Assembly (NCBI RefSeq): GCF_018977255.1
Contig: NW_024704742.1
Coordinates: 91,824,001 to 91,888,000, forward strand
Length of the DNA: 64,000 bases
Direction: 5' to 3'
DNA from: Callorhinchus milii
Taxonomy: Eukaryota
The notes beneath the pieces were generated by a model. That model made no database searches, had not been told where the DNA came from, and saw only the letters and a program-made list of their open reading frames with translations. The position numbers and the translations under genes were made by a program. This document shows positions 53,201-53,794 of this stretch, in pieces (positions within the stretch are counted from its first letter, which is position 1; every line of letters starts with the position of its first letter).

Positions 53201-53407
53201 TCTCTCTCTCCACATATATATATATAGATGTGTGTGTACATATATATATATATATACATATACACTTGAGCTAAATCTGGGAGAAGCCGTCTGTCAACCT
53301 TCTTCACTTCACTCACAACGCACAGCATCACTCCCTGCTCCGGCCGTTCCTGGTGCAGGTGTTTCCTGTGAGCGAACTTCGCAATTGGTTCGCACGTTAT
53401 TGATGAG
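52955..53407 (+). other. KLF4: Putative KLF4 exon 1 (5'UTR; start position approximate)
   Basis: Ends in ATGAG|GTGGGT, the same ATGAG|GT exon-1 end as mammalian KLF4. The start is inferred only from a TATA-like TTCAATAAG at 52924. Confidence 0.6.
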
Positions 53408-53692
53408 GTGGGTTTAACTCGCGGATTGGTGCGCTCCCGTCCTTCTTTATCCATAAATATGGCATTAGTTCTCGGGTGGTTCACCGAGTCCTTCTCGGGA
53501 TGCAAATCGAAAAAAGTAAAGGGTGACTTTTATACATATAGAGTGGAGCAGAAGAAGAGTCAGAGGCTGACTTGTTGACTTGTGCGTTTGGTTTCCTCTC
53601 CTCCTCTCCCTCTCTCTTCCCCCTCTCCCCCTCCACCCTCCCCTCTCCCCTCTCCCCCGGTGCTTGTAGGCGGCCAACAGAGTGGGTTCGAC

Positions 53693-53794
53693 ATGGCTCT
53701 GTCCGGGACGGTGCTCCCGTCCATCACCACGTTCACCACCAACACGAGTGAGAAAAGCGTGGAGAAATCCACGGGACAGACGTTCGGAAGCAAC
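53693..53794 (+). CDS. KLF4: KLF4 exon 2 coding part (exon begins 53670); [34 protein letters not shown]
   Basis: Pyrimidine tract plus TTGTAG acceptor ending 53669; GACATGG Kozak context at 53693; donor AAC|GTAAGG at 53795; phase 0. Confidence 0.9.

Follow-up and report, generated by a model that had tools for sequence, protein, structure and literature searches.

An out-of-frame counterpart of the KLF4 long-form start codon and a predicted overlapping upstream reading frame in the elephant shark

Mouse KLF4 is described in a long and a short form, KLF4L and KLF4S, of 483 and 474 amino acids, respectively (PMC4400650, PMC7066363). According to these two papers, KLF4S and KLF4L expressed singly gave comparable protein levels, target genes, and reprogramming, and a difference in level was reported only behind a 2A peptide, where even an HA tag was sufficient for rescue. 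The original prediction had stated that the nine residues separating the two forms alter the KLF4 protein level. On these accounts the effect is an artefact of the 2A vector setting and does not come from the native leader, and since the singly expressed forms reached equal levels, an effect of the nine residues on the level of native KLF4 is unsupported. KLF4 dose as such was reported to matter in reprogramming in the same part of PMC4400650. The supplementary file searched for PMC4245810 did not mention KLF4, nor did that for PMC9943669.

Upstream AUGs that open a frame running into the coding sequence (overlapping open reading frames, oORFs) are common. Across 478 species, according to PMC7889888, oORFs made up on average 14% of upstream AUGs and N-terminal extensions 2.3%, and oORFs were described as generally being under purifying selection. 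According to the relevant section of PMC13087467, an overlapping uORF prevents ribosomes from reinitiating at the main start, and strong inhibition by such uORFs is frequent. The definition of a high-impact oORF excerpted from PMC7253449 calls for a strong or moderate Kozak context (a purine at -3 and/or a G after the AUG) or for evidence of translation, and selection on weak-context uORFs was reported there to be weaker. The abstract of PMC11623489 argues that many upstream starts reflect inefficient initiation. Changes that shift the frame of an existing upstream AUG by one base or by splicing have been described in human genetics, as in the NF2 variant -65-66insT, a single-base insertion whose creation of an oORF is the proposed disease mechanism (described in part of PMC7253449), and the NRAS variant c.17-2A>G, which converts an oORF into an N-terminal extension (described in part of PMC13087467).

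The elephant shark locus resembles mouse KLF4 in the gene, the upstream ATG, and the short-form start, and it keeps the short form; unlike in the mouse, where the upstream ATG is in frame, it stands in the +1 frame. With eukaryotic oORFs as characterized in the cited part of PMC7889888, it shares a leader AUG in another frame, a stop within the coding sequence, and, by prediction, no reinitiation at the main start, and it differs in that the predicted oORF would derive from an ancient in-frame start through the gain of one base, with no new AUG. Whereas the NF2 and NRAS variants, as presented in the sections cited, are rare or somatic and have a strong or adequate context, the elephant shark state is apparently fixed, has a weak context, and runs from extension to oORF. 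It is thus the origin from an ancient in-frame start that is unusual here, oORFs and frame-switching changes being already known. Among the titles and abstract openings of open-licence papers in PMC and bioRxiv, none was found that treats the KLF4 leader of the elephant shark or reports how deeply the extension is conserved.

The gene under study lies on the forward strand of a 64-kb stretch of genomic DNA, referred to as the window, and was identified as KLF4 of the elephant shark, Callorhinchus milii. The spliced model of 415 residues is identical to RefSeq XP_007890759.2 (P0081), the best match outside the fingers is KLF4, and three C2H2 fingers stand at the C terminus. A protein search with exon 3 returned C. 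milii KLF4 at 100% identity, followed by KLF4 of sharks and rays, with KLF17/18 far weaker, and the region is single copy within the window. The four coding exons occupy 53693-53794, 54389-55193, 55315-55479, and 56902-57077. Both C. milii entries in the database (P0001 and P0081) begin at the Met at 53693 and carry no extension; the older entry differs from XP_007890759.2 at residue 12 only.

A run search under one species label returned 24 runs, of which 13 contained part of the stretch and none was recorded as RNA. Four of the 24 (X1, X5, X6, and X8, from three studies), chosen as presumed RNA and represented by assembled contigs only, were aligned to 52950-55500, giving 32 aligned contig pieces that were listed and 168 further ones; spliced joints are present in three of the four. 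The contig-covered part of exon 1, a 5' leader, spans 53018..53407 (X5 records 9 and 10, at 53018-53178 and 53273-53408, and X6 record 17), where the limit at 53018 is simply the extent of RNA-like contig cover and the microsatellite at 53179-53272 was skipped in the alignment. Exon 2 (53670..53794) comprises 23 leader bases and the first 34 KLF4 codons and is joined to exon 3 (54389..55193, defined by protein match and contigs) by the joint 53794>54389 in X5, X6, and X8. Exon 4 (55315..55479; X6 record 18 and X8 record 27) encodes the first zinc finger, and the coding part of exon 5 (56902..57077; from the spliced model) encodes zinc fingers 2 and 3 and the stop.

Only two ATGs occur in 53018-53407. 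The first opens a 13-codon uORF at 53228..53269 within the (AT)n/(GT)n microsatellite of exon 1, in weak context with T at both -3 and +4. The second, at 53403..53405, is the orthologue of the KLF4 long-form start. Exon 1 ends ATGAG|GT, with the donor GAG|GTGGGT after 53407, and intron 1 (53408..53669; 262 nt, GT..AG) ends in the acceptor TAG| before 53670, on the 3' side of a long pyrimidine tract. The two ATGs are therefore separated by 5+23 = 28 spliced nucleotides and are out of frame with one another. The resulting frame of 28 codons ends at the TGA at 53749-53751, overlaps the coding sequence by 59 nt, and stops 43 nt before the exon 2/3 junction and 1013 nt before the last junction. It thus has the layout of an oORF, with an AUG 5' of the coding sequence on the same mRNA (X5), a different frame, and a stop inside the coding sequence, and on the canonical splice form the upstream ATG does not give a KLF4 long-form extension. 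In the main frame, two tandem TGA stops at 53401..53406 close off any extension on the 53407>53670 form. On recomputation of coordinates and frame, the original prediction held for the overlapping 28-codon uORF, the exon 1 end, the 23 leader bases, and the TGA at 53404-53406 as a bar to N-terminal extension, to which the second TGA (53401-53403) adjoins on the 5' side. Its proposal that an acceptor AG at 53681-53682 would restore the frame is likewise correct as to frame: of the two downstream AGs at 53679..53682 (CAG and GAG), only the GAG, with exon start 53683, does so with the main donor, and this GAG is the third AG past the pyrimidine tract, with no use seen. The only other open in-frame pair joins a weak donor at 53412 to the CAG acceptor (exon start 53681). 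RNA folding of 53273-53407 gave no clear structure (z = -1.77, with 8 of 200 shuffles equally good).

The RNA-like contigs were then used to check the 23-base leader and the splice joint, as the original prediction had proposed for 53670-53692 and the junctions, and at contig level the outcome agreed with it. No indel was found at 53670-53692 in any of the four runs, nor, among the pieces listed, anywhere between 53619 and 54999. X5 record 11 and X8 record 23 each cover 53668-53794 with 127 letters and no gaps, and X6 record 18 matches 53497-53794 letter for letter (298/298). X1 record 3 covers 53632-54169 with one unplaced gap, which most likely sits in the skipped T/A run at 53880-53924; X5 record 12, which overlaps only from 53765, is also gapped. 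At 53727 the window has C and all four runs have A, and they therefore represent other haplotypes rather than copies of the assembled one; with the contig allele, the uORF is still 28 codons long. In X1, heterozygosity at 54170 broke the assembly into two contigs, while nothing splits 53670-53692, and hence the 23-base state of the exon 2 leader looks fixed in the elephant shark in this small sample of four runs.

The joint 53407>53670, which skips the 262 nt of 53408-53669, was observed in X5 only, in one contig of depth 13 whose shorter arm has 27 letters. No other intron 1 joint occurs among the four runs, so that the count is 1/4, compared with 3/4 for the exon 2/3 joint. An X6 contig of 1661 letters (record 18) begins at 53497, inside intron 1, and so also contains the 3' part of the intron, and is spliced through exons 2, 3, and 4; forms of KLF4 without the spliced uORF therefore also exist. 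No exon 1 contig of X8 was found among the pieces listed, contigs not being proof of absence. Joints to exon starts at 53681 or 53683 were not present in the contigs of the four runs; assembled contigs lose rare forms and give no proportions, and minor use of other acceptors is possible.

The ancestral state was examined with the first 96 proteins retrieved, 74 of which carry the short-form start motif. Residues precede the motif in 52 of these; the other 22, among them two KLF17/18 proteins, begin directly with it. The extension is exactly 9 residues long in 42 of the 52 and 8, 10, 12, 13, 29, or 36 in the others. Counted by named species, with unnamed Logan proteins left aside and the frame read from annotated protein models, an in-frame extension, typically MRRPQSEFD or MRRPQTEFD, is present in at least one model of all 22 shark and ray species retrieved. 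It also occurs in coelacanth, bowfin, a smelt, frogs, a salamander, a lizard, a turtle, and mammals. Among 15 hand-picked non-cartilaginous species, many of them chosen as doubtful, it is present in 7 and absent in 8 (arowana, two eels, Podarcis, Pangshura, Gastrophryne, Tupaia, and a partial chimpanzee entry), where loss of the ATG, loss of its frame, and incompleteness of the model would all look alike at protein level. An extension specific to mammals is ruled out by its presence in sharks, rays, bony fish, amphibians, and reptiles, and the contrast drawn in the original prediction between this lineage and mammals does not stand. The out-of-frame state is not conserved in elasmobranchs, and C. 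milii is the only holocephalan found. A protein search at 158-504 aa and one with residues 1-50 returned no second chimaera KLF4 (C. milii only, with a single match for residues 1-50), and a search at 30-227 aa gave one ray-like fragment; a further search was uninformative, the best 150 of 106,748 matches being nearly all long zinc-finger proteins.

The leader itself retains traces of the extension. In the main frame, 53678-53695 reads QSGFDM, and in the upstream frame 53671-53676 reads RP. When a one-base skip was tried at 23 positions, removal of either A of the dinucleotide at 53676..53677 was best, giving 8/9 identities to shark extensions. This likeness exceeds chance and bears out the assignment of the upstream ATG as the orthologue of the long-isoform start; judged by protein comparison, the AA dinucleotide would be the site of the additional base that sets the elephant shark at +1 against sharks and rays. 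The one departure is a G where all 13 distinct 9-residue extensions have E or D. Given how widely the extension is shared (22/22 elasmobranchs, coelacanth, bowfin, smelt, amphibians, reptiles, and mammals), the out-of-frame condition of the elephant shark is best read as a derived loss: outgroup comparison points to an in-frame extension as ancestral to jawed vertebrates and to a gain of one base (A) in the elephant shark.

Several annotated models illustrate variation around this start. Models with the short start stand beside long ones in Heptranchias, Carcharodon, Cetorhinus, Chiloscyllium, Stegostoma, Mustelus, Scyliorhinus torazame, and coelacanth. Three RefSeq models of Narcine bancroftii (P0085-P0087) have ...NEW and an extra R before the usual extension, and may fit translation from this same upstream ATG in the -1 frame, with splicing to an acceptor that lies 8 nt farther 5', which would set it out of frame on those transcripts. 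Two models of Heterodontus francisci (P0003 and P0096) differ by one Arg, with extensions of 8 and 9 residues and the frame kept, which suggests a tandem acceptor 3 nt apart. The eel and arowana proteins with the start motif (P0059, P0089, P0090, and P0283) all begin at the short-form Met, and bowfin and smelt are extended; independent losses of the extension in these early-branching teleosts are possible.

In the scanning model, most ribosomes in all these species would pass the weak first ATG. With T at -3 and A at +4, the elephant shark's upstream ATG is weak by the classes of PMC7253449, and the main ATG (53693..53695; short form, 415 aa), with G at both positions, is strong; on context, the upstream ATG falls outside the high-impact oORFs as defined there. 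In three frog proteins whose annotated start lies farther 5', the long-form Met is preceded by L or F, so that a pyrimidine stands at -3 there too, and the weak context looks old. The following course of events is proposed. Ancestral jawed-vertebrate KLF4 would have had two in-frame starts: a weak one closing exon 1, whose use lengthens the protein by about 9 residues, and a strong one within exon 2. Near the exon 2 start, a single A would have been gained on the way to Callorhinchus milii and become fixed or nearly so. On the 53407>53670 mRNA, the weak ATG would then open the 28-codon frame running beyond the main start. Under scanning, most ribosomes would pass it and start at the strong ATG; the minority initiating upstream would make no KLF4 and would not reinitiate at the main ATG, whereas in species with the upstream ATG in frame such ribosomes would still yield KLF4. 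The position of the uORF stop, so far ahead of the last junction, might also expose some of the mRNA to decay. The elephant shark would thus make essentially the short form only, with a modest constitutive drop in output, a penalty that transcripts starting in or retaining intron 1 would dilute. The effect of the upstream ATG on KLF4 output is probably small.

We therefore favor, with a probability of roughly 60%, a tolerated and near-neutral loss of the long isoform with mild repression by leaky scanning and no evolved switch. This reading is supported by the weak upstream against the strong main context, the interchangeable mouse forms, the G in the remnant QSGFD, which is expected in place of E/D after loss of constraint, and the X6 contig starting in the intron; the argument in the abstract of PMC11623489 fits such a low-function reading of the upstream ATG. 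Other points count against it. The upstream ATG persists although oORFs are under purifying selection according to the section of PMC7889888 cited above, a remnant only one residue from sharks requires that the insertion be recent or that the bases be constrained, and the joint 53407>53670 comes from one contig in one run. In addition, the frame is kept in 22/22 elasmobranchs, so that leaving it seems costly elsewhere, which fits poorly with full neutrality.

Among other readings, the frameshift may have created a selected translational brake, in which the oORF, possibly together with nonsense-mediated decay, limits KLF4 dose and splicing of intron 1 versus retention or an intronic start switches the brake. 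The coexistence of spliced (X5) and intron-1-containing (X6) forms would suit such a device, as would retention of the upstream ATG, the strong inhibition and block to reinitiation reported for overlapping uORFs, the NF2 precedent, the importance of KLF4 dose in reprogramming, and the three Narcine models, which may show the same ATG out of frame by another route. The weak context of the upstream ATG argues against it, as does its restriction to one species, the protein searches having met no other chimaera; the uORF peptide is not known to have relatives that would hint at a function, and we regard a selected brake as unlikely. A bolder version is that a start codon which jawed vertebrates had maintained in frame for about 450 million years became, through one base, a working repressor in chimaeras, with intron 1 splicing versus intronic start setting the KLF4 dose and a parallel out-of-frame option in Narcine; this is more doubtful. 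Rated the same is the idea that the uORF hardly matters, since the bulk of KLF4 mRNA in this species would lack the 53407>53670 form, either by beginning inside intron 1 or, for a minor share, by using the frame-restoring GAG acceptor (53683) or the 53412 donor with the 53681 acceptor. Here the intronic beginning of the X6 contig and the lack of an exon 1 contig for X8 among the pieces listed would agree, and two donor/acceptor pairs do leave the extension open and in frame. Contig depth in X5 is 56 for exon 2 against 16 for exon 1 and 13 for the joint, but contig depth cannot rank parts of a gene and RNA-seq drops off at 5' ends. GAG acceptors and TGG|GTTTAA donors match the splice consensus poorly, and no intron 1 joint other than the canonical one was seen in the four runs.

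Two further explanations concern the extra base itself. In-frame alleles might still segregate in the species, and the one-residue distance from sharks after the base skip would fit a recent event, as would the other variable sites at the locus (53727 and 54170); yet unbroken single contigs cross 53670-53692 in 4/4 runs, the heterozygous 54170 did split X1, and both database proteins lack the extension, which makes such a polymorphism very improbable. A one-base assembly error in the window can be rejected with still greater assurance, since the contigs of X1, X5, X6, and X8, from three studies, have no indel at 53670-53692, even though the difference from all four runs at 53727 means that the window is not free of errors or private alleles.

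The 9-residue KLF4 extension has been known mainly as a cloning variable of reprogramming vectors, and would appear from these comparisons to be ancestral in jawed vertebrates and near-invariant in length, with several residues likewise. Its conservation contrasts with the mouse assays that found no function, a small question that is now testable. The elephant shark and its in-frame relatives form a natural pair one base apart for gauging the cost of a weak-context upstream AUG on a dose-sensitive transcription factor. Should that cost prove small, as the weak context would lead one to expect, this is an ordinary lineage-specific loss; if the repressor reading were true, the elephant shark would be a natural knockout revealing a conserved role of the KLF4 long form missed by mouse cell assays.

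Additional features of the window were observed. Between 53178 and 53273, across the microsatellite of exon 1, the count is 90 letters in X6 record 17 and 94 in the window; the repeat varies between individuals, and the frame of the 13-codon uORF possibly does too. At 53727, the window and XP_007890759.2 have C (Thr12); an A, giving the Asn12 found in sharks, is present in the four runs and in the older entry, the C being either a private allele or an assembly base error. Intron 2 (53795-54388) is retained in X5 at a contig depth of 30, beside the spliced joint at 27, a signal of pre-mRNA, DNA carry-over, or real retention. In exon 3, a CAG/CAA repeat at 54970-55009 encodes poly-Gln/His, with one more CAG at 55000 in X5. 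Finally, a satellite block at 37972-42498 lies about 11-15 kb upstream of KLF4 and consists of a 26-mer satellite in 13 copies (37972-38306), a (TGCCG)n satellite in 104 copies (39946-40463), a (GTGA)n satellite (40703-41435), and an 18/27-mer array (41624-42158); it accounts for the peak in GC and skew at that position.
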